Source: an uncultured Armatimonadetes bacterium
GTDB taxonomy: Bacteria; Armatimonadota; UBA5829; DTJY01
NCBI GenBank assembly: GCA_963717145.1
Contig: OY970325.1
Location: forward strand, 2,656,001 to 2,720,000
Direction: 5' to 3'
Length of the DNA stretch: 64,000 nt
Position numbers and translations under genes: made by a program. Every line of letters starts with the position of its first letter. Position 1 is the first letter of the stretch. The notes below the pieces were generated by a model. That model was not told the origin of the DNA. It was given only the letters and a program-made list of their open reading frames with translations, and ran no database searches. Below, one piece after another: positions 33,194 to 62,812 of this stretch.

Positions 33194-33407
33194 CCCCCAC
33201 TCGCTTTCGAAAGAAATGCTTTCTTATTTTGCCCTCGCTTGGTTTCAATACCGGCTGGGAATGGGTACAAGCTCAACTGGAGATTCGGTATTCCCTGCCA
33301 AGACTACCGAGTACTTGCGGCTCGTCATTCCCACAACATATATCACAGCCGGTTCTACAATCAATCGGGTATAACAAGACTAGGCTGTGACCGGCACGGG
33401 GGCAACC

Positions 33408-36400: not shown

Positions 36401-37424
36401 CCGCGTGCACTTTACGCAGATAGACATGGAGCCGGGGTTCGACTTCATCGATATACTGGACGCCGGAGACAATGTTGTCGACACATACACCGGCTCATAT
36501 ACCGACCAGTGGACTCCCTGGGTGGCAGGTGACACCCTCAAGATTCGCCTTCAGTCAGATGAAGGCAGCAGCATGTACGGCTTCCGGATGGATAAGTACG
36601 CGGCGGTTGCCGGTGAGCATGGGATCGCGGGCGCCACGGTCAGCACTGAAACCGGCGGCTTCAGCGCCGTAACCAATTCCTCCGGCGTGTTCATCATCAC
36701 AGATGTGGATGCCGGACCGTACTTCGTGTCGCCCTCCATGCCCTACTGGACCTTCGAGCCCGTCTCGAGGCAGGTAAACGTGGTGTCCGGGGTGATCACC
36801 ACCGATGTCGGCTTCTATGGCAGCTTGTCGAGCATGCCCGGGCTGGTCTACATCAAGTCACTGGCAGACGGGACGGACGTCTGCATATCGGGCAAAGTGG
36901 TCACTGCCGGAACCGATGATTTCCCGGGATGCTTCTATGTGGAGGAGAGCGACAGGACCTCCGGAATCAAGGTGACAACCTCCAAGACCGTGCACGCCGG
37001 TGACGTGGTAACAATATCAGGCATCATACATACGGCCGACGGGGAGCGCTACATCGCCTCCTCGGGTGTCACGGTCTCGCCTACCTCGGGGGTCATCCCG
37101 GACCCACTCGGCCTCCATGGCAGGGCACTCGGCGGAGGTCGTTGGAACACTCACACTCCGGGTGTCACGTATGGGGTCGGATTGAACAACGTCGGCCTGC
37201 TGGTACGGACCTGGGGACGGGTGCTGAACGTCGACGCGGGCCAGTTCTACCTCGATGACGGCTCGGTCGGCGGGATCAAGGTCAACTGCGGTTCGATCGA
37301 TCCTGCGATGGAGGAGTCGTGGGTGCAACTGACGGCGATCAGTACCTGCGAGCTGGTAGGCTCGGACATCGTCCGTGTGCTGAGAGCACGCAAGGCCACA
37401 GACATCATCACGATCCTCCCGTAG
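33408..37424 (+). CDS. Secreted S8 subtilase (Kp43-like) with CUB-like and carboxypeptidase-regulatory-like domains and shared C-terminal module; frameshifts near 34775 and 35278
   Basis: Signal peptide; triad FADSG, HGTH, GGTSMS; LVWTDPP...LVNDLDL; two HPYPD...IRVHF..ID...G.D domains. Confidence 0.85.
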
Positions 37425-37452
37425 GGCCTGTTCCACGACCGCAGCGTACCTC

Positions 37453-37734
37453 TTTGTGGGAGGAGTCTCCGGACGGACAGATCGCTGTCCGGAGACTCCT
37501 CCCGCAAATGCATACCGATCCCGGAAGACCCCCACCGTCAGTACTGAGTTCGCCGGTGAATGACTGCGCTCGCGGCGCAGTAACTTGCTCCTTCGAAAAC
37601 AGCCGCCCATCGGCTGTTTTCATGTATAGTGGTGTTCCGAAGGGACATGCCGGATTCCTAAGAAACCACCGATCTCAGACGACTCCGTCGTCCTCCGCAG
37701 CCACCGACGACGGAGTCGTCTGAGATCGGTGGTT
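37453..37734. repeat. Two palindromic elements between convergent genes
   Basis: TTTGTGGGAGGAGTCTCCGGAC with near-inverse (37453-37508) and 29-bp arms AACCACCGATCTCAGACGACTCCGTCGTC with inverse (37664-37734). Confidence 0.8.
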
Positions 37735-37980
37735 CTCTTCTGAAATAACCGCGTCCTCGCGGTACGCCGCTCAGAATGACATCCGTGTGGCTTTGCTATC
37801 AACGATCAAAGGCGTTTGTCCACCAAGAATGTGCCGGGAGGTCACACGTGCGCGCGTGGGCAAGAGAATGCGCTGATGGCAGTGGTGGCGAGGGTGCGGG
37901 GTGAAACAGGACACATGGGGATGGCAGGGCGGCCACCACAATCGACGCTGGGGGGCGTAGCAGGCCGCTGAAGGCCCGCC

Positions 37981-39219
37981 CTACACTCTTTGCCTGTATC
38001 GCCTCAGGGCCAGTCCGCATGTGACACAGAGCGTCCCCAGTTGCAGAATCGATGACGGCTCGGGAACCGTGCCCACCGCGTACACATAGGAACCGTATGT
38101 CCCCACGTACACCGTACCGTCGGCGCCGATCGCCGGAGAGGAGTGTATTTTCGATCCGAGGTTCCGGCTCCAGTTCGTCGTGCCGCTCTGGCTCACCGAA
38201 TAGAGGTAGCCGCTGTGAGTCCCGAAATAGACCGAATTGTTGATGTCGACCAACGGCGAGGATGAGATGGGCGAATTCACCGTGAGCGCCCACTTGCGAG
38301 TCCCGTCCGGGCGGACTGCGTGAAGTGCACCGTCATAGGACCCAAAGTAGATCGTGCCGTCGTAACCGATGGCAACGGAGGAGCTGACGTTCGGCGGAGC
38401 GGAATATGCCCATCGCCTGGTCCCGTTCGGGTTGACGGCATACAGCCACCCGGTCGACGATGCTATGTACACAGTGCCGTCGTCGCCGATCGCCGGCGTC
38501 GCCGCCATCTGACCTTCTCCCCTGAAGACCCATGCCAGCGAACCATTGGGGTTCAGCGAGTACAGACCTCCGTCGCTGGATCCTATGTAGATCCTTCCGT
38601 CGCTGCCGATCGCAGGGGATGAGAAGCTGTGCTCTCCCATTGCATACCACCAGTTGACGGATCCGGTCGCGGAGTTCACGGAGTACACTCTACCTGCTTC
38701 GTCGGCAAAGTAGAGAGCGCCGGCGGCATCCAGGATGGGAGACGAATAGACGGCGGAAGTCTGAGTGCCCGGTATCTGACCTATCTTGAGGTCCCATTTC
38801 TTTGTTCCATTCGGGTTCAGGGCATACATATGGGCATCGGACGAGCCGAAGTAGATGGTACCATCGCTTCCAACGGCGGGCGAAGATGAGATGGAACCAT
38901 AGGTGCGATAGGACCACAAGGTCGCGCCTGTATGGCTGATTGCATAGAGATTCTTATCGAACGAACCAACGTAGACAGTGCCGTCTCCCGTAATGGCGGG
39001 CGAAGACGTGATGTAGCTGCCGGTCTGCACTCTCCAGGCAACAGAGTCCTGGTCTGTGCCTGCATAGATCGAGCGACCGGTTCTACCAGGGTCTACGCGA
39101 AACGACGGTTGTCCGCTCCCGGATTGTGCGCTGACAGGTGACATGCACCAGACTGTCAGCGTCAGCAATACGAGCGCTGCTGCCAGTGATGTTCGGTGGT
39201 CCACTAAGTACCTTTTCAT
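37981..39219 (-). CDS. PQQ-like (BamB-type) beta-propeller protein with PEP-CTERM sorting signal
   Basis: Signal peptide; eight SSPAIG.DGT.Y.GS.D..LYA repeats; VPEPSS-TM-RRYRQR. Confidence 0.9.
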   Translation of the reverse strand: MKRYLVDHRTSLAAALVLLTLTVWCMSPVSAQSGSGQPSFRVDPGRTGRSIYAGTDQDSVAWRVQTGSYITSSPAITGDGTVYVGSFDKNLYAISHTGATLWSYRTYGSISSSPAVGSDGTIYFGSSDAHMYALNPNGTKKWDLKIGQIPGTQTSAVYSSPILDAAGALYFADEAGRVYSVNSATGSVNWWYAMGEHSFSSPAIGSDGRIYIGSSDGGLYSLNPNGSLAWVFRGEGQMAATPAIGDDGTVYIASSTGWLYAVNPNGTRRWAYSAPPNVSSSVAIGYDGTIYFGSYDGALHAVRPDGTRKWALTVNSPISSSPLVDINNSVYFGTHSGYLYSVSQSGTTNWSRNLGSKIHSSPAIGADGTVYVGTYGSYVYAVGTVPEPSSILQLGTLCVTCGLALRRYRQRV

Positions 39220-39272
39220 GGCCGGACCCCCTCCCTTTGAACTAAACCTCGATGACTCTCAACGGTCATAAA

Positions 39273-39288
39273 TGCAAGAATCGTGCCA
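39273..39288 (-). promoter_or_regulatory. Sigma54 -24/-12 promoter
   Basis: Minus strand TGGCACGATTCTTGCA, about 55 bp upstream of the PEP-CTERM gene. Confidence 0.85.
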
Positions 39289-40408
39289 AAAGGCAAGAAA
39301 CCGCCAATATACCGATCGGTTTTTCATTCATTTGAACAGCTTATGTTTGGTATGTGATGGCTTTGGGTAGAATACGGCCAGTGCAAGATGTACATTCATG
39401 CAATGGACTGGCTGCATGGAGAGCAAGCATTGAGCATTTTGGGTTCAGCCGTAGTAGACCATACGCTTGTTGATTTAGGTTTGGACTGCACGATTCGTGG
39501 GTAAGATACAACGTCTGTAAGCTGTCCCTGTGACAAGCTTGACGCATGCTTGATAAGCAAGCGTCAAAGTAGCAGGCGCATTGTCGCTGAGACCTGTACC
39601 GCCAGGCTCTGACGAGTCACAGGCAGCCAGTGGGAGCAAGCGCTGCCTGTAATAATGATGGCAGACACTGCTCCCGAGCGCCCGTAGGTTCTGCGGTGAA
39701 AAGTTTGAACAAAGTAAGTTTAAGCCAAGAGGCTAAGTGGGTAAAATCGAGGGGCTGATTGGCGTAGAAGTCGGAGACTTTCCGACGTCAGTACGACAAG
39801 ACTCTAACCAGCAGCGAAAACGCTTGATCGCATACATGTCCGAACTCCCATCGCTTGCAGAATCGGGCTCAAACATGCTCTGTAGCATGCAAGCCGCAAG
39901 TTGTGGCTCGATCGGGCGGTAACTCGTACAGTATAAATCCAATAGACCTTGAAGAGAGAAGAGGAAGGCTGAGAGATGGGAAGATCCCTCAGCCCGCGGC
40001 CTTCAGATTACTCCATGTGCTAGAGCGGTGTTGGCCTTGTTGCTATTATGGGGGCGGGACGCACGCAAGTCAATAGCTTATCGTGCCCTCGCCTGGTAGC
40101 TAAACAAACGGCCAACCCTTTAATAAGTTTCATCGGCGGCCCGGGCATCGTTGCTAGCCCGTCAGTCGACTCGATGACATACCGAAGGGGGTGGTGTGTA
40201 TTACGTAAGCTAGACGATTGGCGATTGTTTCCGAACTCGGTGTTTTTTCGGGCCATGCAAGGAGGCAAAGTATTGGTTCAAACCCCGGGATCGAAGGACG
40301 ACATTACTGGGTGCTGTCATGTCGGCCGGAAGTAGTCGCAAAGCAACGACCCAAGCACCGTTTGATTAGCAATTGAATGCAACCATCTAAAGGAGGAAAC
40401 ACGCTACC

Positions 40409-41290
40409 ATGAAGAAGTCACTACTGTTGATCGCTCTGATGCTGCTGGTTGCTGTTCCCGCAATGGCAGCGAGAGTAGCTTCGGTTCCCATCACTCACGA
40501 GACATCGCTTGTATACCAGGCATATCCTGGTAACAGCGACGGAACCGACCTTGAGTTCCTGGGCTATCTGGGCACGGGCGAGGATGTTATCACGGCTGTC
40601 CCGGGCGTTCTTTCGATCGTCCCCGGTGACAACTGGGAGAACTTCGTCGGCGCCGCTCAGGAAGATCCTGCAGTCCCTTACACGATCAAGAACGTGGTTC
40701 TGTGCAAGCAGACCCCGTCGGTCATCCAGTGCGCGGACATCTTCCCTGCGAAGACCATCTGCCAGCAGGGAACACCGAACATTCGCCTCTGGTGGCCTCT
40801 GATGTACGAGGCTCCTGGAACGTGCTGGACGCTCACCATCCTCTACGGAACTTCCGTTCCCTACGACGATGACGGCGCTGGCCCGAACCCGGCCGGCTAC
40901 GTTCACACCGAAGTCTGGGTGTGGTGTGTAGACGCGACGCTGGAGAGCCTTGAGAATCTCCTGGACCTGTTCCATGAGCTTCCCTTCGGCTTGGACGAAG
41001 TTCCCCTGATCTCTGACGAGGAACTGTTCCCGATCCTCCAGGACAAGATCGATGCCATCGAGGCTGCCCTTGAGGGCTCCGTGCCGGATCCGACGACTGC
41101 CGGGATGATCCTCGGCGACTTCGAGATGGAAGTCATGGATGCCTGCATCCCCGTATCGCCGATGACCCCGGCCCCGACGGGCCCCGGAACCGGCATTGCG
41201 AACACGCTGGAGAATCCGGCATGCTGCAAGCTCATGGTTGACGCTGAGTTCATCGGCTTCGACTTGGGCATCTTCCTGCCGGCGAAGTAA
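40409..41290 (+). CDS. Secreted protein of unknown family, paralog 1
   Basis: AAGGAGG RBS, signal peptide, motifs WPLMYE.PGT, YDDDG.GPNP.GYVHTE, HELPFG.DEVPLISDE, ENPACCKL. Confidence 0.9.
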   Translation: MKKSLLLIALMLLVAVPAMAARVASVPITHETSLVYQAYPGNSDGTDLEFLGYLGTGEDVITAVPGVLSIVPGDNWENFVGAAQEDPAVPYTIKNVVLCKQTPSVIQCADIFPAKTICQQGTPNIRLWWPLMYEAPGTCWTLTILYGTSVPYDDDGAGPNPAGYVHTEVWVWCVDATLESLENLLDLFHELPFGLDEVPLISDEELFPILQDKIDAIEAALEGSVPDPTTAGMILGDFEMEVMDACIPVSPMTPAPTGPGTGIANTLENPACCKLMVDAEFIGFDLGIFLPAK

Positions 41291-41307
41291 GGACAACTAC
41301 AGAGTAT

Positions 41308-41333
41308 GCGCGGACGGGGAAACCCGTCCGCGC
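41308..41333 (+). terminator. Hairpin after paralog 1
   Basis: GCGCGGACGGG-gaaa-CCCGTCCGCGC, no strong T-run. Confidence 0.6.
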
Positions 41334-41389
41334 TGCTTCGGTCATAAGTCGACCGGTTGACCACCCCCTTATAACAACTGGAGATACTG

Positions 41390-42232
41390 ATGGGACGGTA
41401 TCTGACGCCGCTAATGATACTGTTCGCCATTGCCGTGCCGGCGATGGCGGCAAGGGTTACTTCCGTGCCGATCATGCACGAGACCGACTTTGTCTTCCAG
41501 GCCTATGCCGTTCGAGACGGTTCGCCGCTCGATGTCATTGAGGCAGTTCCGGGCGTTCTATCGATCGTACCCGGAGAGAACTGGGAGAACTTCGTCGGAG
41601 CAGCGCAAGAGGATCCGGCAGTACCCTACGTTATAAAGAACGTGGTCCTGTGCAAGCAGACTCCCTCTGTCATCCAGTGCGCGGATGTGTTTCCTGCAAA
41701 GACGATTTGTCAACAGGGAACGGGAAGCATCCGCCTCTGGTGGCCGCTGATGTACGAGGTCCCCGGCACCACCTGGACGCTCACGGTTGTCTACGGAACA
41801 AATGTTCAGTATGACGACGACGGCGCAGGTCCGAACCCGGCCGGCTACGTTCACACCGAGGTGTGGACGTGGCAGGTCCAGGCGACTCTGGAGAGCCTCG
41901 AGAGCCTCTTGTCGCTCTTCCACGAGCTGCCGTTCGGTCTGGATGAAGTCCCTCTCATATCCGATGAGGAACTGTTCGTGGCCTTGCTTGGCAAGGTTAC
42001 GGAGATCCAGGCAAGCGTCTGTACGAACGACCAGGCGGGCATGGGTCTTCTACTCGGCGATTTCGAGATGGAGGTCATGGATGCGTGCATTCCCGTCTCG
42101 CCGGAGACTCCGGCCCCAACGGGCGCAGGAACCGGCATTGCCAACTCGCTGGAGAACCCAGCATGCTGCAAGCTCCTGGCTGACGCCGAGTTCATCGGCT
42201 TCGACCTGGGCATTCTGCAGCCGAAGAAGTAA
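41390..42232 (+). CDS. Secreted protein of unknown family, paralog 2
   Basis: Same motifs; GGAG RBS. Confidence 0.9.
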   Translation: MGRYLTPLMILFAIAVPAMAARVTSVPIMHETDFVFQAYAVRDGSPLDVIEAVPGVLSIVPGENWENFVGAAQEDPAVPYVIKNVVLCKQTPSVIQCADVFPAKTICQQGTGSIRLWWPLMYEVPGTTWTLTVVYGTNVQYDDDGAGPNPAGYVHTEVWTWQVQATLESLESLLSLFHELPFGLDEVPLISDEELFVALLGKVTEIQASVCTNDQAGMGLLLGDFEMEVMDACIPVSPETPAPTGAGTGIANSLENPACCKLLADAEFIGFDLGILQPKK

Positions 42233-42325
42233 CGGCGATCGGCCTGCATCGCAGGCCGTTTCGCCCTACTCAGTCATCAACGGCCCCGGCCTTTGACCGG
42301 GGCCATCCATAAAGGAGTTACGACC

Positions 42326-43195
42326 ATGAAGAAGTACTTGTTGCCGCTTGCCGCAGTACTTCTGGTTGTCTCACTACCTGCATTCGCAGCCAGGACAGCG
42401 ACAGTTCCGTTGACGCATCCCGAGATGATCGTCTTCCAGGTTTACCCTGGAAACAGCCTCGACAGCGAGGTGGCGTTCGCGGGATACGAGGGGATAGTCC
42501 CCGGGGACCTGATCACTGTCGTACCAGGCATACTGTCGATCGTTCCCGGCGATAACTGGGCGAATTTCGTCCAGGCCGTACGCGATAACCAGCCATATAC
42601 GATCAAGAACGTGGTCATCAGAAAGACGACGCCTGAGCTGAATCAGTGCGCAGACCTCTTCCCGGCTAGAGTCGTGAGCCTGGGCGGAACACCCAACGTC
42701 AGACTCTGGTGGCCTACCATGTTCGAGGTCCCAGGCACAACCTGGACGCTGACTATCGTTTACGGGACGACTACGCCGTATGACGACGACGGACCGACGG
42801 GACCCAACCCTCCATCCTACGTGCATACCGAAGAGTGGGTCTGGAGAGTTGACGCATCTCTCGAGCAGATAGAGCAATTGCTCGCTCTGTTCCACGAGGT
42901 GCCGTTTGGTACAGACGAGGTTCCTCTCATCTCCGATGAGGATCTCCTCGTGGCTCTTCTCGACAAGTTGGACTTAATGGGGAATACCACCGAACCTCTA
43001 GCTCTCGCGAACTTGTTCGCGGATTTCGAGATGGAAGTGATGGACGCGTGTATCCCTGTTTCCCCGAGATATCCGAATCCAACCGGAAGCGGAACGGGCA
43101 TCGCCAACTCACTCGAGAATCCTGCATGCTGCAAGCTGCTGGTCGACGCCGAGTACGTTGGAGTTAAACTCGGTGTGCTGCAGCCTGGTAAGTAG
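42326..43195 (+). CDS. Secreted protein of unknown family, paralog 3
   Basis: AAAGGAG RBS before MKKYLL; same motifs. Confidence 0.9.
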   Translation: MKKYLLPLAAVLLVVSLPAFAARTATVPLTHPEMIVFQVYPGNSLDSEVAFAGYEGIVPGDLITVVPGILSIVPGDNWANFVQAVRDNQPYTIKNVVIRKTTPELNQCADLFPARVVSLGGTPNVRLWWPTMFEVPGTTWTLTIVYGTTTPYDDDGPTGPNPPSYVHTEEWVWRVDASLEQIEQLLALFHEVPFGTDEVPLISDEDLLVALLDKLDLMGNTTEPLALANLFADFEMEVMDACIPVSPRYPNPTGSGTGIANSLENPACCKLLVDAEYVGVKLGVLQPGK

Positions 43196-43222
43196 ATAGT
43201 GAAGTACGACTAGGTGCGGAGT

Positions 43223-43254
43223 AGAGGGCTCCGTCCGCAAGGGCGGAGTCCTCT
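43223..43254 (+). terminator. Hairpin after paralog 3
   Basis: AGAGGGCTCCGTCC-gcaa-GGGCGGAGTCCTCT. Confidence 0.55.
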
Positions 43255-43273
43255 TCTAGAAGAGAGACTGATC

Positions 43274-44100
43274 GTGGGAAAAGCGATACTGCTCATTGCA
43301 CTGGCGATCCTGCTTTTCTCGCTGCCGACGATGGCGGCGAGAAACACGGTTGTTCCAGTGGTGAATACGACGAATATCGTATACCAGGCCTACACATTCC
43401 GTGCCGGAGTGGGACCGTCGGTGTGCCGCCGATACTCGCCGTGTCGGGAGTATTGTCACTGACGCCTTCCGACCTCCTGCAGTCCGCGGTGGGGCAGATA
43501 CCCTTCACGATCAAGAGTACTATCCTTCAGAAGAAGACTCCCTCCTTTGTCCAGTGCGCAGATGTCTTTCCCGCCGGCACGGTCAGCCAACAGGGAGCGG
43601 CGAACGTCCGCCTCCAGTGGCCGCTGATGTACGAAACCCCGGGGACGACATGGACGCTCACGATCGTATATGGCACGTCATCCCCGTACGATGATGACGG
43701 GACTGGGCCGAATCCGCCGTCCTACGTTCACACCGTGGTGTGGACCTGGCGTGTGGAAGCGACCCTCCAGAGCATGAAGGACCTGTTGGTGCTGTTCCAT
43801 CAGTTGCCGTTTGGAACAAGCGAAACACCGCTGATCTCGGATGAGGCGCTCTATGGCCAGCTTCAAGAAAAGCTTGACGAGATCATCGTGAAGGTTGCCA
43901 CGCAGAAGACCGCTGCCGCCGGGCTTCTTCTGGCAGACTTCGAGATGGAGGTCATGGACGCCTGCATCCCCACCCCACCAACAGAACCGAATCCCGGCGG
44001 AGCCGGAACGGGTATCGCCAATTCGGCCGAGAACCCGGCATGCTGCAAGCTCATGGTCGATGCAGAGTACGTCGGAAAACAGCTCGGCATCATGCAGTGA
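43274..44100 (+). CDS. Secreted protein of unknown family, paralog 4; frameshift near 43420
   Basis: Signal peptide and YQAY in the frame of ORF 43214; remainder in the frame of ORF 43423. Confidence 0.85.
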
Positions 44101-44384
44101 TCCCGAGCCGCCACCTGAGAAGTTGAAGGCACTGGTGCCGCCGGTTGCCATTCGACCCTCGAAGATGGTACTGAGACATTCTACCCCACCCACAGGCTGG
44201 TGTTGACATCCTGAGCCGGACGCGGCTCGGGATCGATCGGCACTGCCCGCGGAAAGACTGACCTTTCACCCCACAGCAGCGCTCTGTGTCGTTTACGGCA
44301 TAGGGTGCGCCCTCGGTTCGGTACGTCCGTGCACGGACGAACCGACCCGGGGGCAATGACACCCCACGGTCTGGAGAGAGAAAG

Positions 44385-45260
44385 ATGAAGAAAGCAATTC
44401 CGCTGCTTATCGCCGCGCTCGCGGCGATCTCGCCGCCATTGCTCGCCGCCAGGATCACCGTCGCGCCGGCCAATCACGCGCCGATCCCGGTGTACGAGGC
44501 CTATCGGGGTAGCAGCAATCAGACGGACTGCTTCGACATGGGTTACGCGGGCGTAGGATGGGATGCGATCACCGTCGTGCCCGGGGTCCTTGCTATAGAT
44601 CCCGGACCTGCGTGGTCGAACTACATCAAGGCCGCCCAAGAGGGTGTACCCTACGCGGTCAAGAACGTCGTGCTGCGGAAGCAGACGCCGACCCCGATAC
44701 AATGCGCAGACGTCTTCCCTTCGCGTTTGGTCCAGCAACAGGGAACGCCCAATATTCGCCTAACGTGGCCGCTGATGTACGAAGTCGCCGGGACTACATG
44801 GACGCTCACCATCCTCTATGGCACCACCCAGCCGTACGATGATGATGGAACCGGGCCAAACCCGGCCGGGTACGTCCACACCGAGATCTGGCAGTGGCAG
44901 GCAGAAGTCACGCTGGACAGCCTGAAGAGCGTCCTGGTGCTCCTGCACCAACTGCCCTTCGGCACGAGTCAGACCCCGCTGATCTCTGATGAGATACTCT
45001 ACGAGACACTCCAGTCCCAACTCGAAGAGGTCGCGGCGGCAAAGGTCATCGCCAACGATCTGGTCGCGGCCGGCCTCGCGCTCGGCCAATTCGAGATGAT
45101 CTTGATGGACGGCTGTCTGGCCGTCCCACCCTCTCGGCCCAATTCGACCGGCCCGGGCACGGGTGTCGCCCAGACCGCAGAGAACCCCGCATGCTGCAAA
45201 CTTCTCACAGACGCGGAGTTTCTGGGCTTCAACCTTGGCATCTACCAACCGAAAAAATAG
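44385..45260 (+). CDS. Secreted protein of unknown family, paralog 5
   Basis: Same motifs including ENPACCKL. Confidence 0.9.
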   Translation: MKKAIPLLIAALAAISPPLLAARITVAPANHAPIPVYEAYRGSSNQTDCFDMGYAGVGWDAITVVPGVLAIDPGPAWSNYIKAAQEGVPYAVKNVVLRKQTPTPIQCADVFPSRLVQQQGTPNIRLTWPLMYEVAGTTWTLTILYGTTQPYDDDGTGPNPAGYVHTEIWQWQAEVTLDSLKSVLVLLHQLPFGTSQTPLISDEILYETLQSQLEEVAAAKVIANDLVAAGLALGQFEMILMDGCLAVPPSRPNSTGPGTGVAQTAENPACCKLLTDAEFLGFNLGIYQPKK

Positions 45261-45470
45261 TATGTGCTCGCCCGATAATATGGTAAGTGCTATGTGTGTG
45301 TTTTGCTGAACGACAGCTCAGCAATAAAGTCTGCCGTTGAGGTTACTAAGGCTCAGTTTGTGGGTATAACAGAATGTGCCGTCTGTACAGGCGGTGGCCG
45401 TGCTTGCGCACGCATTCATTAATTCCGCGATCGTCAGCCGCAGGTTATACGATTACTCAGGAGGTAAGGC

Positions 45471-46139
45471 ATGCAGTCAAGGCATTATGTGATCTCGGTT
45501 GTGGCAATACTTGTCGCGCTATGTTCCGGGCAATCGGACGCCAAACCAAAGATCGACACCGTAGTCTACGAGGTCAAGATGAAATCGCCGCAGGGCGACA
45601 TGGGAACCCGAAAGATGTACAAGAAGGGCGATTTCTTCTTGTGGGAGGCCGACACCTCGGGGCTGAAGTTGAAGTTTGTCAGGAACAAGGATGGCGCCTT
45701 CGCGATTAATCCGTTTGGACGGTTTGCCGGCAAGTACCCTCCCGGCTCGAACCGCGAGTCCCCGATGACATTCCTGCCCGGGCCCGCCGGCGACGTGAAG
45801 GATTTCCTCAAGAAGAATGAGGCCAAGAAAGAGGGCCAGGAGACGATAGGGAAGACACTCTGCGACATCCACACTTACACCGAAAAAGAGACCAAGTGGC
45901 AGTGCAAGCTGTGGGTCGAGCAGAAGACCCTCAGACCCGTGAAGATGCTGATGACCGGCGCGAAGAAGAACGACTGGGTCGATGTCACCTACGTTAGCTA
46001 CAGGACCGGTGGAGTGATCGCCGAATCCAGATTCGCGTTGCCCAAGGACATGGAAATTCGTCCGATGCCAAAGCCGAAAGAGGAAGCGCCGAAGAAAGAA
46101 GGCGACGCAGCACCTGCCCCACCGGCAGAGAAGAACTAG
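45471..46139 (+). CDS. Secreted LolA-like/DUF4412-like protein
   Basis: AGGAGGT RBS, signal peptide, G.ETIGK..C..., KLWV.....PVK, ESRFALPK pattern. Confidence 0.6.
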   Translation: MQSRHYVISVVAILVALCSGQSDAKPKIDTVVYEVKMKSPQGDMGTRKMYKKGDFFLWEADTSGLKLKFVRNKDGAFAINPFGRFAGKYPPGSNRESPMTFLPGPAGDVKDFLKKNEAKKEGQETIGKTLCDIHTYTEKETKWQCKLWVEQKTLRPVKMLMTGAKKNDWVDVTYVSYRTGGVIAESRFALPKDMEIRPMPKPKEEAPKKEGDAAPAPPAEKN

Positions 46140-46151
46140 GAGGCCGAATCG

Positions 46152-47600
46152 ATGGGTTCTCGTGACTACAGGAAGCCGCTCCTGCTAACGGCTGCAGTGG
46201 CGGCAGTCGCCATCGCAGGCGTCTTTGCCGGTTTCACCGCCATCGGTGGCACGGCCCCCGCGAATTCCAAGACACTAGCCATACTCTATACCAATCAGGC
46301 ATCCGGCCAGATTCGGTCATGCAATTGCACGAAGTTCCGCTACGGAGGCTATGGGCGTGAAGCCACCTTCGTAGACAAGATCCGAGCCGAGAACGCCAAC
46401 CTGGTCATCATCGAAGGCGGAGACGCCGTGGGCCGTGACGAAGTCGAGCAGGAGAAGCTGAAATCTGAGTTAGCCGTAAATGCGATGGGCGCGATCGGCT
46501 ACTCCGCCTTCGTTCCGGGTGAAGCCGAGCTAACGTACAACCGCAAGAGTCTTGAGGATTGGACCGTCAACTCGAAGACACCATTCCTCCTTGCCAACGC
46601 CAAGTACAAGGACACCGGGAAGCCGGTATGCAGCCGGCCCTACGTGATCCAGAAGCTGCCGAACGGCCTTCGGGTGGCAGTAGTCGGCATCGTGGGCCTT
46701 GAGCTTTTCCCGGAAATGTTGAAGATGGGCATCGAGATTGACGTGAGTGACCCTGCGGTCGCTCTGAAGAGCCTGGTGCCGAAGATCCGCCCCCAGGCGG
46801 ACATAGTGGTCGTTGTCGCCCATTCCGAAGCCGCGAAAGCGAAAGCACTTGCGGGGTTATCCGGTGTGGATGTCGTCATCTGCACCCATTCGTTCGAGAA
46901 GCTGGAGATGCCCGCAAAGGGCGAGAACATCGTTGAGGGCTCGACGGAGAAGATCAGCAAGTGCGTTTTCGTCGTCAGCAGTTCACGGTCGGGCTGGAGT
47001 GTGGGCAGGCTGGACCTGGAACTCGACGGCAAGGGGATCAAAACGGCCCGCAGCCGCAGTTTCTTCCTTGACCGAGCCTATGAGGAGGCGCCGAACCTCG
47101 TCAAGCTGTACAACGAGTACAACGCCAAAGTCGCCGAGGTCACCGCCAGCCAGCAGAACGCGCTCAAGGCCAGATTCGAGGACCTGCTGAAATCCAGAGG
47201 GATCGATACATCGAAGCGCCAGCGCGCAACACCGTATGCCGGTTCAGCCGCCTGCAAGACATGCCACGAGGAAGCTTACGACATGTGGGCCGCGTCCCGG
47301 CATGCGAATGCTTTCGCCACGCTGAAGAAGACAGGGCAGGAGGCCGATCCTGAGTGCGTCTCTTGCCACACTACCGGCGCTATGCGGCGAGGTGGATTCA
47401 CGAATATGAAGGACACGCCCGACCTGGCCAACATCCAGTGTGAGGCATGTCATGGCGACGGCACATCCCATGCGGCCAAGCCCGAAGCGGGCTTCGGCGC
47501 TGTATCAGAGGATCTCTGTCGTGGCTGCCATACCGAGGCGTACAATCCGGACTTCGATTTCGAGCAGATGCTCAAGCTCATTCCGCATAAGAAGCAGTGA
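46152..47600 (+). CDS. 5'-nucleotidase-like (UshA-like) domain fused to tetraheme cytochrome c (c554-like)
   Basis: ILYT...GQIRSCNC....GGYGR, EGGD, PGEAE; heme motifs CKTCH, CVSCH, CEACH, CRGCH. Confidence 0.85.
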   Translation: MGSRDYRKPLLLTAAVAAVAIAGVFAGFTAIGGTAPANSKTLAILYTNQASGQIRSCNCTKFRYGGYGREATFVDKIRAENANLVIIEGGDAVGRDEVEQEKLKSELAVNAMGAIGYSAFVPGEAELTYNRKSLEDWTVNSKTPFLLANAKYKDTGKPVCSRPYVIQKLPNGLRVAVVGIVGLELFPEMLKMGIEIDVSDPAVALKSLVPKIRPQADIVVVVAHSEAAKAKALAGLSGVDVVICTHSFEKLEMPAKGENIVEGSTEKISKCVFVVSSSRSGWSVGRLDLELDGKGIKTARSRSFFLDRAYEEAPNLVKLYNEYNAKVAEVTASQQNALKARFEDLLKSRGIDTSKRQRATPYAGSAACKTCHEEAYDMWAASRHANAFATLKKTGQEADPECVSCHTTGAMRRGGFTNMKDTPDLANIQCEACHGDGTSHAAKPEAGFGAVSEDLCRGCHTEAYNPDFDFEQMLKLIPHKKQ

Positions 47601-47614
47601 AACCTTGACAACAG

Positions 47615-47646
47615 AAAACCCTCGGCTGCAAGTGCAGTCGAGGGTT
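47615..47646. terminator. Bidirectional terminator
   Basis: AAAACCCTCGGCTGCA-ag-TGCAGTCGAGGGTT. Confidence 0.65.
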
Positions 47647-47674
47647 GGTCTGCGTTCTTGATTGGAACTGATCG

Positions 47675-48160
47675 TCAGGCTATGCGCCGTCTGATCATTG
47701 CGCCAAGGCTGGCAACCCCACCGAGCAGGGCAAGCAGGGAACCGGGCTCGGGCACCGGGGTGACTGCGCCATCGAACGTGAACTCGTCGCTCATCACATT
47801 GTAGTATGCCGTGAAGAACGGCGCGTAGGTATCAGCGGTTAGCTCGAATCCGCTCAGGCTTTGTTCGGGCCCTGGGTCGTTTCCAATGGCATCAAAGGCG
47901 GGCCAGTCAAAGCTGGGATTGATCACCCAGCCCGCCGGCGCAGCGGTAACGGTGTAGTAGCTGGTCGGTACAGCCGGATCCCAGAGGATGTCCAGGTAGG
48001 TCGGGATCACGTCACCGGTCGTATCGTTGTTGGTCAACGTGTACACCCAGGAATTTGGCGTCGCCCCTGCCTCGACTGTCATGGAGAACGGGGCAACGGC
48101 AAACGCAGATGCGCTGCAGAGGACCAGAAGTGCGAGCATCAGACTCAGCTTCAGTTTCAT
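47675..48160 (-). CDS. Small PEP-CTERM protein
   Basis: AAGGAGGT RBS, signal peptide, VPEPGS-TM-RRR. Confidence 0.92.
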   Translation of the reverse strand: MKLKLSLMLALLVLCSASAFAVAPFSMTVEAGATPNSWVYTLTNNDTTGDVIPTYLDILWDPAVPTSYYTVTAAPAGWVINPSFDWPAFDAIGNDPGPEQSLSGFELTADTYAPFFTAYYNVMSDEFTFDGAVTPVPEPGSLLALLGGVASLGAMIRRRIA

Positions 48161-48284
48161 TTGGTACTACCTCCTTCTGCGGTTAATGATATTTGCAAAT
48201 GCCTGACTGACCGAACGGGTTAGGCCTGTTCAGGTTTCATACAGACAGTTGGTACATCCTATGCCAACTTTCAGAAACATAATG

Positions 48285-48300
48285 TGCAAGAAACGTGCCA
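48285..48300 (-). promoter_or_regulatory. Sigma54 -24/-12 promoter
   Basis: Minus strand TGGCACGTTTCTTGCA upstream of the PEP-CTERM gene. Confidence 0.85.
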
Positions 48301-48388
48301 ATCGGCGTTCTCAGCAAAAAAAGGCACTGATTAAGTTGCCAAGCTACCGCTAAAAGTGCGAAGTAACACTGAATGGGGGACACTCTCA

Positions 48389-54300: not shown

Positions 54301-56217
54301 CTACTTCTCGGTGAGGGCAAGGAATGGCGCGGGAGCCTTGGGCACTGCCGGGAATAGCGACGGTATCACCGCTGACGCATCTGCTCCCTCGACGCCGGTT
54401 GTGACTGACGATGGAGCTTACACCACGAGTTCGACATCCCTGCATGCGACTTGGACCGCTTCGGATCCTCAGAGTGGCATCGTGGAGTACCAGTATGCCA
54501 TAGGTGATTCTATCGGCGGGAACAACATAGTAGACTGGACCTCCACAGGCACGACAGCCTCGGTCACCAGAACAGGACTGTCACTCGTCGACGGGACGAC
54601 CTACTACTTCTCAGTGAGGGCCAGGAATGGCGCGGGAACCTGGGCACCGCCGGAAACAGCAACGGTATCGCAGCCGACGCGTCCGCTCCCACGATACCGG
54701 TTGTCCTTGATGATGGAGCCTACACCTCGAATACGACGACCCTGCATGCAAGCTGGGGCGCCTTCGATCCTCAGAGCGGCATCCAGGAGTACCAGTATGC
54801 GATCGGTACTTCCATCGGAGGGAACAACATCGTGGACTGGACGTCCACAGGCACGACAACCGGAGTCACCAGGACGGGGCTGTCGCTTACCGACGGGACG
54901 GCCTACTTCTTCTCCGTGAGGGCAATGAACGGCGCGGGAGCCTGGGGTACTTCCGGAAACAGCGACGGTATCACCGCTGACGCGTCTGCTCCTTCGACGC
55001 CGGTAGTCACGGACGATGGCGCATACACCTCTAGTTCAACATCACTCCATGCGACCTGGACCGCGTCTTCCGATCCGCACAGCGGCATTCAGGAGTATCA
55101 GTACGCGATCGGTACCTCCGTTGGCGGAAACAACATCGTGGACTGGACGACCACAGGAATGAGCACTGCGGTCACCAAGACAGGGCTATCGCTCGTCGAT
55201 GGGACAACCTACTACTTCTCGGTGAAGTCGAGGAACGGCTGCCGGTGCCGGGGCACTGCCGGAAACAGTGACGGAATCACCATGGCCTCGGATCCTCCGT
55301 CGACGCCGGTGGTCACTGACGACGGCGACTACACGCTGCCGGATATGCTCCATGCGACATGGGTCGTCGCGAATCCGCACGGGGCCATCATGGAGTATCA
55401 GCTTTCGATCGGAACGTCGGTCGGAGGAACCGATATTCTGGGCTGGACCTCCGCCGGGACTGCTACCGATGTCACGCGGACTCTGCTCTCCCTCGAAGAG
55501 GGCAACACGTATTACATGAACGTCAAAGCCCGAAATGCCGCCGGACTCTGGAGCGCAGTCGGCTCGAGCAATGGGATCGTAGTCCCGCCCGCATTCGCAT
55601 CCATCCTGGACGCGAAGTCAGTGCCGAACGGACAGGGGATGAGGCTGAGCGGCAAGGTGGTCACAGCCGGCACCGCGAGCCTTCCCGACCTGCCCGGACC
55701 GGCCTACTTCTACATCCAGGAATCGAGTGGCATCATCGGCATCAAGGTCGTCAACTCGACGACGATCGCGACCGGAAGTATCGTCGATATCGCCGGTGTG
55801 ATCGAGGCTCCGGACGGGGAGCGACAGATCACCGCTTCCGTCACAAGGGTGGTCGGACCGAGCGGAACAGTGCCTGGCGCTATCAATATGGCCGACAAAG
55901 CGATCGGCGGCGCCGCGCTCAATCTGTACACACCCGGCGTATACATGGACTCCGGCCCACATAATGTGGGTTCAATTATCAAAAGTTGGGGTAAAGTAAC
56001 ATACGCTGGAGGGGTAGGCGTAGACTACTTCTACCTGAACGGCGGCTGCTTCCTGAGGGATGGATCAGGCCACGTAGGCATCAAAATCTACTGCGGCACA
56101 CTCACGAAACCGGCTGTCGGTTCCTCCGTACTCGTAACGGGCATCAGTTCCTGTGAACCGTTCTCCAGCAATCTGGTGCGCCGAGTGCTCGCCACGGAGA
56201 TAATCGAATACCCATAG
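48389..56217 (+). CDS. Giant secreted surface protein (~2600 aa): WNGTN(F/Y)LVAW.D.R repeats, 16 FN3-like repeats, shared C-terminal module; frameshifts near 50750, 51915, 53730, 54645
   Basis: ORFs 48356, 50770, 51924, 53627 and 54832 join into one continuous repeat register; signal peptide at the start. Confidence 0.8.
50770..55590 (+). repeat. Coding tandem repeat, ~295-bp unit x16
   Basis: Unit P.V.DDG.YT.....LHA.W...DP.SGI.EYQYAIGT..GG..IVDWTSTG...YYFSV.ARNGAG...GNS.GI; several units are very similar at DNA level. Confidence 0.9.
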
Positions 56218-59200: not shown

Positions 59201-61495
59201 AAACCGTCGACTCCAATGGTGACCGATGACGGCGATATCACGTACTCATTTGGCTCCCTGCACGCCGTCTGGGAGGCGGACGATGCTCAGAGCGGCATTG
59301 CGGAATACAGCTATGCGATCGGCACATCCCCGTATGCGACGGACGTAGCAGGCTGGACATCTTCCGGTCCGTCGGCCGGGATCAACAGGACCGGCTTGTC
59401 GCTCACCGATGGCATCTCCTACTACTTCACGGTCAAGGCAAGAAACGGAGCCGGACTCTGGAGCGATGTGGGAGTCAGCGACGGCATCAGTTGCATGGCA
59501 GCCTCGGCCTGGCCGAAGTTCCGGGCCAATGCCATGAACAGCGGAGTAAGCGAGTTCCAGGGATCCCAGTATGGCGCTCTCCTCTGGGAGTTCTCCACCT
59601 ACGGATGGGTCGAATCGTCACCGGCGATTGCAGGCGACGGGACGGTATATATCGGGTCGAGCGACGGCGCGCTGTACGCCATCGGTCGTGACGGCAACAT
59701 GCAGTGGCATCTGGAGACGGGAGGTCCCGTCGATTCCTCTCCCGCGATCGGCCCGCACGGTGAGATCTACTTCGGCTCGTACGACTTTCATCTCTATTGT
59801 GTCAGCGCGAGCGGCGCGCTCAAATGGAGCTACCGGACTTCAGACATGATCTGGTCCTCACCGGTCGTATCCGCCGATGGCACGGTGTATGTGGGCTCGC
59901 AGGACGGTTGCCTCTACGCGATCCGGCCCGACGGCACTCTGCGCTGGAAGTATCAGTCAGGCGGAGCGGTCTGGTCGTCGCCGGCGCTCAGCGAGGACGG
60001 AGTCCTCTACTTCGGCAGCGGAGATAACTACATCTACGCAATCGACGCCGAGACCGGAGACTTCGTATGGAGGTACCGGACGGACACGGCGGTCGACTCG
60101 TCACCCTGCATCGGCCCCGACGGCACGATATACGCGGGATCGGGCGACAACTACTTCTACGCGCTGAACCCTGATGGAACCCTGAAGTGGCGCGTCTACA
60201 CCGGCTGGCCGACCGATTCCTCCGCCGCGATAGGCCCGGATGGCACGATATACGTCGGGGCGGGCCATAACTGGACATACGGCATGCTGTTTGCATTCAA
60301 TCCCGACGGCACTCAGAAGTGGGTCTACGAGCTGGCTGGACAAGTCAAGTCATCGCCTGCTGTCGGCGCAGACGGGGTGATCTACTTCGGAGCGGGTGAC
60401 GGATATGTGTACGCATTGGACTCTGACGGCACTCTGAAATGGCGTCACTACACGGAAGCGGCAGTCTTGTCATCCCCCGCCATCCACAGGGACGGGATGG
60501 TATGTGTCGGATCGAGCACCGGCCGCGTCTACGCATTCAAGGATTCCGGCATCGATGACGGTACCCCGCCAACCAGACCCATCGTCACCGATGAAGGCGC
60601 CGCCACGCTCAGCACGGACAGCCTGACCGCATCCTGGACATGCAGTGACCCTGAGTCCGGGATCGCCGAATACCGATATGCCATTGGCACGTGGCCCGGC
60701 ACTGAGAACATCATCCCGTGGACTTCGGCAGGCACGCAGACCTCAGTGACGAGAAACGACCTGAGCCTGACCCAGGGAACGACCTACTACTTCTCCGTGA
60801 AGGCGCGAAACACGGCTCGCATGTGGAGTCTTACAGGAGTATCCGACGGAATCACCGCCGTTCGCGCCGAAAACACTCGGAGCATCGGCGCAACGGAGCA
60901 CCTGCCGGACGAAACGCTCGTCTATCTTGAGAGTAAGGTTACGACCGCCTCGTTTGCCGATTGCTTCTACGTCCAGGAGGGCGATCGATCCGCGGGCATC
61001 AAGATCCTGCCAAACGGAAGGCCGATCCCGCCTGAGGGCACGTCGGTGACGCTGGTTGGCAGGATGACAACCGACAATGGTGAAGCCGCGATCCTCCTCG
61101 CCACGATCCACGGTGCGGACATCATGCCAATGCCAAGGCCCATGGGCATGGTGGCCCGGGCTACCTGCCTTGGGTTACAGGCGGACCTGCGAACGGCAGG
61201 CCCTCCCGGAGTCGGATTAGAGGCGATCGGACTGCTGGTCGTCGCGCACGGGCGGATCACCGCCGTGATGTCGGATTGCTTCTTCGTAGATGATGGTTCC
61301 GGAGCGACTGACGTTTCCGGCATCCCCGGGGTGAAGGTGCGCACTCAGGGCCTCTCACCAGGGCGAACAATCGCTCCCCCTGGAGCAGTCGGCGACTGGG
61401 CGAGGGTGACGGGAGTGCTCGCCATCGAGCGCACCGCCGCTATCTTCAAGCGTGTGCTTCGTCCGCGCTCCCAGGATGACGCTGCAAAGTCCTGA
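56237..61495 (+). CDS. Giant secreted protein: two PQQ-like beta-propellers, 7+1 FN3-like repeats, shared C-terminal module
   Basis: Intact 1752-aa ORF with signal peptide; WPKF..N..N.G propeller leaders; same DDG repeat unit as the upstream gene. Confidence 0.9.
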   Translation: MTVDRLLSRIKPTLCSALIASALLFASEAVNAELASGIWPKFHANTRNTGLSTINGPDGDSLDWMFTTGGEIASSPAIAPNGRIYFTSRDQYLYAVNPDGTMAWRYDINTTLAASSPAIGADGTVYVGSEDLYIYAINADGTLKWRKGLGGQISSSPTIGSDGRIYVGVANGRLYALNPDGVIAWGFQTGAAVVSCAAIGSDGTIYVTSKDYYFYALTPGGSMRWRFATGNRIESSPAISDAGMLVFGSDDGKLYSRTPTNGANWSYTIGSIVRSSPAFGPDGTVYVGADDGYLYAFQANGVFKWRYNTGGVVRSSPAVGSDGVVYVGSQDHGIYAINPDGTLRWRHDTGGQVNSSPAIGAGGKLYAASLDGKLYAFRSDLTPPSQPSVVDDGNYSTSANSLHALWSSSDPQSGIAEYVYAIGTQPQFTDVAGWTSAGTATEITRGGLPLINATVYYISVKARNGAGLWSEIGSSDGVVVDFTAPTIPIVTDDGAFTASPSTLHASWSASDPETGVAAYEYCIGTSPGSTDVSAWTSAGTSAEVTRTDLSLTSGTTCYFAVRARSVAGLWSDPGISDGIVIDLTPPPAPIASDDGDYTSSPDSLRASWTASDPESGITGYEYSIGSTLGGDDIVGWTPIGVATEVTAGGLSLSSDTTYYFSVRALNAAGLWSDPGNSNGITVDLSQPSTPTVTDDGVATSSPGALHAAWSSGDAESGIVEYSYAIGTSPGATDVAGWTSAASATEVTRDNLSLVSGTTYYFAVKARNGAGQWSVVGMSDGILVDLTAPTAPVVTDDGQFTVSGDTLHAAWSASDPETGVSAYEYCIGTGPALTDVIPWTSTGVSTEVTRNGLVLSSGTTYYFGVRAKNGVGLWSIVGASDGILADRTAPGTPIVTDDGQFTSATNRLHASWTATDAESGIIEYQYSVGTSNDGTDIVGWTSAGAATEVTIEGLSLSDGGTYYISVRAKDNVGWWGAPGSSDGITVDLSKPSTPMVTDDGDITYSFGSLHAVWEADDAQSGIAEYSYAIGTSPYATDVAGWTSSGPSAGINRTGLSLTDGISYYFTVKARNGAGLWSDVGVSDGISCMAASAWPKFRANAMNSGVSEFQGSQYGALLWEFSTYGWVESSPAIAGDGTVYIGSSDGALYAIGRDGNMQWHLETGGPVDSSPAIGPHGEIYFGSYDFHLYCVSASGALKWSYRTSDMIWSSPVVSADGTVYVGSQDGCLYAIRPDGTLRWKYQSGGAVWSSPALSEDGVLYFGSGDNYIYAIDAETGDFVWRYRTDTAVDSSPCIGPDGTIYAGSGDNYFYALNPDGTLKWRVYTGWPTDSSAAIGPDGTIYVGAGHNWTYGMLFAFNPDGTQKWVYELAGQVKSSPAVGADGVIYFGAGDGYVYALDSDGTLKWRHYTEAAVLSSPAIHRDGMVCVGSSTGRVYAFKDSGIDDGTPPTRPIVTDEGAATLSTDSLTASWTCSDPESGIAEYRYAIGTWPGTENIIPWTSAGTQTSVTRNDLSLTQGTTYYFSVKARNTARMWSLTGVSDGITAVRAENTRSIGATEHLPDETLVYLESKVTTASFADCFYVQEGDRSAGIKILPNGRPIPPEGTSVTLVGRMTTDNGEAAILLATIHGADIMPMPRPMGMVARATCLGLQADLRTAGPPGVGLEAIGLLVVAHGRITAVMSDCFFVDDGSGATDVSGIPGVKVRTQGLSPGRTIAPPGAVGDWARVTGVLAIERTAAIFKRVLRPRSQDDAAKS

Positions 61496-62651: not shown

Positions 62652-62728
62652 CGGCAATGCTCATACCCCCGGGCTTGGGGAAGTGTTGAGTTAGCTGTCG
62701 AACGAACCGAATATCAGTAGTGACAACT

Positions 62729-62772
62729 AGACCCTCCATCCTCCTTCTACTGAGAAGGAGGATGGAGGGTCT
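62729..62772. terminator. Bidirectional terminator
   Basis: AGACCCTCCATCCTCCTTCT-actg-AGAAGGAGGATGGAGGGTCT, 20-bp stem. Confidence 0.8.
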
Positions 62773-62812
62773 CTCTCTTGTCGCTATGGAGGAAAAGCGA
62801 TCAGCGTCAGAG

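Follow-up and report, generated by a model that had tools for sequence, protein, structure and literature searches.

CTD-A and CTD-B, two C-terminal modules of secreted proteins in one class of Armatimonadota, and the predicted self-pairing of CTD-A

The CTD-A genes and their family

The window analysed here is a 64,000-nucleotide (nt) stretch from an uncultured Armatimonadetes bacterium (GenBank assembly GCA_963717145.1, contig OY970325.1, positions 2,656,001 to 2,720,000 of the forward strand). Between positions 40409 and 45260 it carries a tandem array of genes for secreted proteins, and two further copies lie near its end, all built on one repeated domain of ~260 amino acids (aa) that we name CTD-A. 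The Armatimonadota are, to our knowledge, almost uncultured, and we know of nothing established about how their cell surface is built. The copies in the window are as follows:

40409..41290, + strand: copy 1, stand-alone CTD-A with signal peptide, 293 aa; AAAGGAGG upstream
41390..42232, + strand: copy 2, stand-alone CTD-A, 280 aa
42326..43195, + strand: copy 3, stand-alone CTD-A, 289 aa from its ATG; AAGGAG upstream
43214..44100, + strand: copy 4, CTD-A broken by a frameshift, with the signal-peptide part and the remainder in different frames
44385..45260, + strand: copy 5, stand-alone CTD-A, 291 aa
61767..62651, + strand: copy 6, stand-alone CTD-A, 294 aa
62813..64000, - strand: copy 7, CTD-A forming the C-terminal end of a ~580-aa secreted protein, whose gene extends past the window end

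A sequence-only reading of the window had described five consecutive genes, seven copies in all, and Sec signal peptides on the six that stand alone. The array is real, with four intact genes, but copy 4 is not one open reading frame (ORF): its signal-peptide part (43214-43462) and the remaining 225 codons (43423-44100) occupy different frames, with the frameshift near 43400-43425 and no homopolymer at the site. The copy 4 ortholog is intact in the genome of a relative (L013), and in a quick tree the copy 4 branch is not lengthened and pairs 1:1 with that ortholog; either copy 4 has become a pseudogene or the assembly is wrong here. Signal peptides of the Sec type (n-region, hydrophobic core, A-x-A) can be recognised by eye in the stand-alone copies, that of copy 4 being out of frame with its domain. 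The start given for copy 3, 42323, was one codon early, its ATG lying at 42326; copy 4 follows copy 3 after 18 nt.

All seven copies align as one family (58-85% identity to copy 1), and the shared motifs named earlier are invariant columns of that alignment. The total of seven holds for the window only, since the genome (one contig, 5.37 Mb) has 12 copies: the six stand-alone copies of the window and six C-terminal domains of larger open frames (378-1988 aa). Copy 7 is one such domain, CTD-A making up the final ~260 aa of its protein. The mature stand-alone proteins have masses of 27.9-29.3 kDa and isoelectric points of 4.05-4.58, so that they are indeed acidic, as had been proposed. The calcium-binding role suggested for a DDDG motif is not supported in that form, because YDDDG is not kept across the wider CTD-A family.

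In Pfam and NCBIfam there are zero matches at E<=1 for any of the seven copies, PEP-CTERM families included; as a positive control, the protein encoded at 47675-48160 in the window does match PF07589 (PEP-CTERM). The earlier description of a family free of PEP-CTERM and of any recognised catalytic motif agrees with this result. No sequence relatives of CTD-A were found in the PDB, where the best E-value of a 52-sequence profile is 0.05. A word-index search returned 331 relatives, all of them unnamed or "hypothetical" and several labelled Armatimonadetes, and a profile run exhaustively against 1.84 billion representatives returned only 202 at E<=1e-3. By these comparisons, the relatedness within the CTD-A family is far beyond chance. 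The ESM Atlas has no entry for copy 1; for the CTD-A homologue P0054 it gives nothing beyond the cluster of the family itself (0.93) and a viral cluster that is unrelated (0.76). Full-text literature searches on Armatimonadota surface proteins gave no description of the CTD-A family.

CTD-A occurs in 24 out of 401 sampled Armatimonadota genomes, all within four families of the window's own class (2 out of 10 genomes plus this one, 2 out of 6, 18 out of 28, and 1 out of 6). It is absent from the genomes of every other Armatimonadota family in the sample. A profile search for family identity and taxonomic range, which the sequence-only reading had proposed, thus yields no named family and a range of one Armatimonadota class.

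Architectures and a second C-terminal module

The family is more than the gene array it had been taken for. Missed in the sequence-only reading, and the most telling features of the family, were its occurrence as the end domain of large adhesin-like and protease proteins and, in other organisms, its fusion to a second C-terminal module. We counted architectures in 150 listed representatives of the 202 at E<=1e-3, calling a protein stand-alone if <=80 aa precede CTD-A and C-terminal if CTD-A ends <=12 residues from the C-terminus of a longer protein. There are 60 stand-alone representatives, 52 with CTD-A at the extreme C-terminus, 24 fragments, 10 with a tail after CTD-A, and four with several copies. 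The single-copy fused representatives therefore number 62 (52 C-terminal and 10 tailed), and CTD-A is at the extreme C-terminus in 52 of these.

Pfam matches are found in the passenger region of 37 out of the 52 C-terminal fusions. They include Ig-like stalk repeats (DUF7507, DUF11, SdrD_B, SpaA, CarboxypepD_reg, Big, and PKD), heads (Ice_binding, VWA, and Golvesin_C), propellers (NHL, SGL, and lactonase), and peptidases (C10, M4, M6, and M23). The six fused copies in this genome have the same kinds of passenger, and all six proteins start with a signal peptide. The domain order in the fused proteins is head, stalk, CTD-A; a head on a stalk that ends in a shared last module is the general build of anchored or docked surface proteins. 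The four multi-copy representatives hold two, two, four, and four CTD-A modules joined by Ala/Pro-rich linkers, and these even numbers fit what would be expected from pairing within one chain.

The tails that follow CTD-A in some representatives match the C-termini of large neighbours in the window, and from this match we recognised a module of ~195 aa that we name CTD-B. In the window it is found at three places:

36843..37421, + strand: CTD-B as the last module of a protein with subtilase and CarboxypepD_reg parts (ORF 35385-37424)
55618..56214, + strand: CTD-B at the C-terminus of an fn3-repeat protein (ending at 56217)
60881..61492, + strand: CTD-B as the last module of a 1752-aa protein with propeller and fn3 parts (ending at 61495)

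CTD-B has no match in Pfam or NCBIfam. In this genome 71 open frames, one of them 6437 aa long, have a CTD-B match, which in most cases lies at the very C-terminus. Together, CTD-A (12 copies) and CTD-B end ~80 exported proteins. Among the sampled genomes of the class, 47 out of 52 have CTD-B, with many candidates each; elsewhere in the phylum there are single and mostly weak matches, except for one genome with three. In eight listed representatives CTD-A is followed directly by CTD-B (five with one CTD-A copy, one with two, and two with four). From its sequence distribution, CTD-B looks like a general end-module for the surface proteins of this class, and it may be the main one.

Two of the CTD-B genes in the window appear disrupted. 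At 33387-37424 there are three overlapping ORFs, encoding a subtilase (33387-34823), a subtilase C-part (34625-35590), and a CarboxypepD_reg/CUB region with CTD-B (35385-37424); the corresponding products in two relatives are single proteins of 1546 and 1385 aa, and the gene appears to be split by frameshifts here. At 50770-56217, fn3-like repeats of ~100 aa are spread over four overlapping ORFs in different frames (50770-52107, 51924-53798, 53627-54919, and 54832-56217), probably representing a single giant protein whose near-identical repeats contain frameshifts or were misassembled. PEP-CTERM-like tails are present in two minus-strand products, that of 37981-39219 (VPEPSS, seen by eye) and that of 47675-48160, which has the Pfam match noted above. 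Counting CTD-A, CTD-B, and the PEP-CTERM tails, the organism equips its exported proteins with C-terminal modules of at least three kinds.

The terminal position of CTD-A would also suit a C-terminal tag for anchoring or export, one that binds an envelope component or is read by a secretion machine, for example, the neighbouring Tad/type II-like system. It would be a counterpart of the SLH, CWB2, and type IX secretion domains that serve in this way elsewhere. The 52 extreme C-terminal positions out of 62 and the order of head, stalk, and CTD-A are both as such a tag would have them. A complete Tad/Flp pilus locus lies just past the window end (genome positions 2721942-2737433), with genes for the flp pilin, a prepilin peptidase, TadE-/TadG-like proteins, CpaB, a secretin, TadZ, TadA, TadB, and TadC, and directly after tadA, tadB, and tadC comes a gene for a 1753-aa DUF11 protein that ends in CTD-A. 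The order TadB, TadC, CTD-A protein recurs in four other genomes, the orthologous passenger being 37-40% identical over ~1270 aa. However, the 60 stand-alone representatives would be tags with no cargo, and in the eight CTD-A-CTD-B representatives CTD-A stands N-terminal to a module that, with its 71 open frames, is the likelier general anchor. Sorting-signal families (PEP-CTERM, the C-terminal domain [CTD] of the type IX secretion system [T9SS], LPXTG, and other -CTERM families) are unmatched in the Pfam and NCBIfam searches, and we know of no Tad system that exports such cargo. We consider a tag of this kind unlikely, though it should be kept in view.

Predicted fold, disulfides, and pairing

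An AlphaFold2 run on copy 1 with a 52-row alignment gave a confident model (predicted local distance difference test [pLDDT] 93.4, predicted template modelling score [pTM] 0.86), consisting of a beta-sandwich (residues ~28-175) and then four helices (178-285). The beta-rich N-terminal part and helical C-terminal part that had been read from the sequence are both visible in the model. A Foldseek comparison with the PDB, proposed earlier together with structure prediction, finds no match to the whole model at E<=0.001. In an independent structural search the top match is chain B of PDB entry 7nsn (Z 12.0, root mean square deviation 2.4, 88 residues, 15% identity), and its alignment falls within model residues 106-291, mostly in the four-helix bundle; the next matches, none above Z 9.5, are four-helix bundles of both designed and natural proteins. 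According to the guide of that tool, a Z under ~13 for a helical bundle may reflect a common arrangement. When modelled by itself (pLDDT 89.4), the sandwich matches only generic immunoglobulin (Ig)-like domains in the structural search, with Z at most 5.7 and no CBM32 among the top 50, and has no Foldseek match in the PDB at E<=0.001; a cohesin chain (5lxv) among its Foldseek rows is not significant (E 0.4). As modelled, CTD-A is an Ig-like sandwich on a four-helix bundle, two common folds in a combination that has no specific solved relative.

Two other folds were considered and dropped. A thioester or ester-bond adhesin domain, suggested by conserved Cys, Gln, and Thr, is represented only by insignificant Foldseek rows (E 0.13-0.5), and the covariation of the cysteines fits disulfides instead. 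An autotransporter-like barrel, suggested by the length of ~260 aa and the C-terminal position, disagrees with a model made of a sandwich plus helices.

The cysteines were scored in 251 CTD-A domain sequences at positions 108, 246, 272, and 273 (copy 1 numbering):

All four present (CCCC): 195 of 251 sequences
108 and 273 only (C--C): 24 of 251 sequences
272 alone lost (CC-C): 8 of 251 sequences
246 alone lost (C-CC): 8 of 251 sequences
All four lost: 6 of 251 sequences

The joint loss of 246 and 272, together with the retention of 108 with 273, points to two disulfides, C108-C273 and C246-C272. From this covariation we infer that they are intramolecular staples, which would hold the last helix against the sandwich and against helix 3, respectively. 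The earlier idea that the vicinal CC pair links different molecules is at odds with the covariation, in which each of the two neighbouring cysteines has a partner in its own chain (C108 for C273, C246 for C272). The initial description as an unrecognised secreted Cys-containing family in a cell-surface setting stands, the cysteines behaving as disulfides should, and the disulfides are compatible with an extracytoplasmic location.

Two copies of mature copy 1, folded together with the alignment, gave pairing scores of 0.88, 0.90, and 0.88, compared with 0.00, 0.00, and 0.12 in three controls with unrelated partners. In a calibration set, the same mark was reached by 20 out of 30 proteins solved as one-chain pairs and by one out of 23 solved as single chains. 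The homodimer runs agree in at least 92% of contacts, with a partner pLDDT of at least 91. As CTD-A lacks a solved relative, it is unlikely that the predictor reproduced a known complex. The predicted interface is symmetric and large (~227 contacts), and is formed by residues 64-71 (PGVLSIVP), 123-133 (NIRLWWPLMYE), 189-199 (HELPFG...VP), and 266-270 (..ENP), the same stretches that hold the signature motifs of the family. Of the 40 positions with at least 85% conservation in the 251 sequences, 21 fall among the 75 that form the interface, and mean conservation is 0.65 in the interface and 0.53 in the rest (P = 3.6e-4, Mann-Whitney, uncorrected for burial). CTD-A is thus predicted to pair with itself as a symmetric dimer. 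This supports the self-association, though not the assembly, in the earlier proposal of self-assembling subunits: only a closed symmetric dimer was modelled, and such a dimer alone would make no lattice, sheath, or fibre.

The reading that we favour, with a probability of roughly 0.45, is that the main role of CTD-A is to join or dock surface proteins outside the cytoplasm through like-with-like pairing; both the extracellular location and the docking role are inferred. The Ig-like sandwich on its four-helix bundle, stapled by two disulfides, would present a conserved face that makes the symmetric dimer, and the module takes three forms. In the tandem array it stands alone, as an acidic secreted protein of ~29 kDa. 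It is also the last domain of large adhesin-like proteins and of proteases, which it would bring together as dimers or dock. In other organisms, one, two, or four CTD-A units precede CTD-B, itself the last module of dozens of surface proteins per genome.

Several observations weigh against a docking role. The dimer is a model and not a measurement, and a closed C2 dimer leaves unexplained both how the protein is attached to the cell and why five conserved tandem paralogs are needed. No CTD-A copy in this genome bears CTD-B or a recognised anchor. Among the 12 paralogs of the genome, the interface is no more invariant than the rest (18 out of 53 positions vs. 43 out of 176, P = 0.21), and its conservation in the wider family may come partly from burial or from a ligand site between the subunits. 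Many genomes have a single stand-alone CTD-A match, which suggests a role of its own that docking leaves unexplained.

A ligand site at the subunit boundary is the core of a different explanation, in which CTD-A is a ligand-binding module (lectin-like, matrix-binding, or metal-binding) or an enzyme. The conserved polar residues K100, Q119, R126, H189, E204, E268, and N269 cluster in the predicted interface, where such a site would lie. The best fold match is also suggestive, being the CBM32 and four-helix bundle at the C-terminus of a GH92 mannosidase. The report on this Neobacillus novalis enzyme (PDB 7nsn; PMC10167667) describes a bundle to which its authors assign no function, yet whose deletion reduces binding to yeast cell wall by about half. 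The likeness to CTD-A is that a beta-sandwich and then a four-helix bundle close a secreted protein of several domains. The two differ in that the 88 aligned residues are chiefly those of the bundle, with a Z under the ~13 of the tool guide, that no sequence relationship was found, and that no dimer is reported for 7nsn in the accessible part of that report. The generic Ig-like matches of the sandwich alone (Z at most 5.7) and the lack of any catalytic family or motif in Pfam, NCBIfam, and the PDB by sequence also speak against binding or catalysis as the main function, which we find improbable.

The docking role could form part of a wider, class-specific system of surface display. CTD-B would be a general cell-surface anchor that ends ~70 proteins per genome, and CTD-A would be a homotypic joint. 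Proteins with one, two, or four CTD-A modules followed by CTD-B would serve as anchored sockets, and the adhesins and proteases that end in CTD-A would plug into them. The free paralogs might cap the sockets or compete for them, tuning which proteins are displayed, with a logic like that of the cellulosome. This extended scheme is speculative, and we doubt that it holds in full.

A shared terminal module of surface proteins is a known kind of element; the CTD-A module, its predicted homotypic pairing, and its partner CTD-B are undescribed. In the cohesin-dockerin system of the cellulosome, many exoenzymes carry a small C-terminal module whose counterpart is found, in tandem, on a protein with an anchoring module at its end. 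By analogy, two or four CTD-A modules with CTD-B would be the scaffold and the passenger-CTD-A proteins the cargo, but the pairing of CTD-A would be like-with-like and not between two module types, there is no Pfam match to cohesin or dockerin, and this genome has no anchored copy. The CWB2 modules of the Clostridioides difficile Cwp proteins, SLH domains, and T9SS C-terminal domains are shared anchoring modules and, like CTD-A, represent one conserved and usually terminal module placed on varied domains in a family of exported paralogs. CTD-A has no sequence match to them, is ~260 aa long, and has another predicted fold, and its most frequent class is free of cargo (60 out of 150 listed). RbmA of Vibrio cholerae (PDB 4be5), a secreted beta-sandwich scaffold of the biofilm, gives a weak sandwich match (Z 4.5); this lies within the generic Ig-like background and RbmA has no helical bundle, so that the likeness is one of analogy only.

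If the docking role is correct, these bacteria would represent an independent invention of modular surface display, and CTD-A would offer a way to annotate the hundreds of giant proteins now called "hypothetical" in their genomes. Even if it is not, CTD-A constitutes a new domain family with defined boundaries. Together with CTD-B it makes two lineage-specific modules, and for CTD-A there are a confident predicted fold, inferred disulfides, and a predicted dimer interface.

The conserved locus and its non-coding elements

The same five-gene CTD-A array is present in one other genome, that of L013. In the quick tree, copies 3, 4, and 5 pair 1:1 with copies of L013 (SH-aLRT 100), and copies 1, 2, and 6 form a younger group. 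The non-coding elements around the CTD-A genes of the window are the following:

39220..40408, + strand: non-coding region upstream of copy 1, 1189 nt, with a lower GC content (0.51)
41291..41389, + strand: hairpin after copy 1, 11-bp GC-rich stem, -42.2 kcal/mol, z -4.96
42233..42322, + strand: two hairpins after copy 2, -46.6 kcal/mol, z -5.89
62652..62812, no strand assigned: hairpin separating the convergent copies 6 and 7, with a perfectly paired 20-bp stem, -71.9 kcal/mol, z -6.99

An equivalent upstream gap, 525-1189 nt long, is found in all seven compared genomes, and its proximal 441 nt are 77% identical to L013. Rfam has no match over 39000-46200. Hairpins had been noted after copies 1 and 3. 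The first of these is confirmed and the second is not: stable hairpins follow copies 1, 2, 4, and 6, and copy 3 has none. None of the hairpins has a T-run, and a scan for consensus terminators gives no site at the intergenic ones. They are not copies of the REP (repetitive extragenic palindromic)-type repeats of the genome, each full hairpin occurring there once.

Two studies (soil and ice) provide RNA-library contigs that align to 40182-43163, covering copies 1-3 and at least 227 nt upstream. Some are near-identical to the window (X1, 342 nt with one difference; X3, 179 and 113 nt with none), and copy 5 is covered by one 165-nt piece. No such contig covers copy 4, 43401-44600, 45201-50000, or 35601-39800, which is no evidence of silence there. 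The contigs are compatible with transcription of copies 1-3 in nature, although such libraries may contain DNA and give no expression level or abundance rank.

These data bear on the proposal with which the sequence-only reading had begun, an S-layer, surface lattice, or fibre in which the stand-alone paralogs polymerise as major and minor subunits and the large CTD-A proteins co-assemble. The proteins are secreted, acidic, and ~29 kDa in size, with a signal peptide and no membrane anchor family found, and self-association is predicted. The 1:1 orthologs of copies 3, 4, and 5 point to an old set of genes that has been kept. The long, conserved non-coding stretch upstream and the unique intergenic hairpins are compatible with a highly expressed structural operon, and RNA-library contigs from two studies do cover copies 1-3. 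On the other hand, these contigs give no abundance, the only assembly predicted is a closed symmetric dimer, and many genomes hold just one copy. In addition, CTD-A is tethered by CTD-B and not free in eight listed representatives, and neither SLH, CWB2, nor any other S-layer family has a match among the seven copies in Pfam or NCBIfam at E<=1. We judge a polymeric lattice to be unlikely.

Gene order around the array is kept in six to seven genomes. It starts with a minus-strand gene for a PQQ (pyrroloquinoline quinone)-type propeller protein with PEP-CTERM and the long non-coding gap, and continues with one to five stand-alone CTD-A genes, genes for proteins of 222 and 482 aa, and genes for giant propeller and fn3 proteins with CTD-B at the end. 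In the window, the array is flanked by CTD-B genes within this syntenic stretch. The genes for the 222- and 482-aa proteins lie downstream of the array:

45471..46139, + strand: secreted 222-aa protein of no family, syntenic with stand-alone CTD-A in six genomes
46152..47600, + strand: 482-aa protein with UshA-like metallophosphoesterase and c554-type multihaem cytochrome parts, syntenic in six genomes

The 222-aa protein has no Pfam match, and its sole NCBIfam match is LolA1-like (E 0.12). The 482-aa protein matches NF041198 with an E-value of 1e-66, which is below the cut-off of that model, and its gene starts 12 nt after that of the 222-aa protein.

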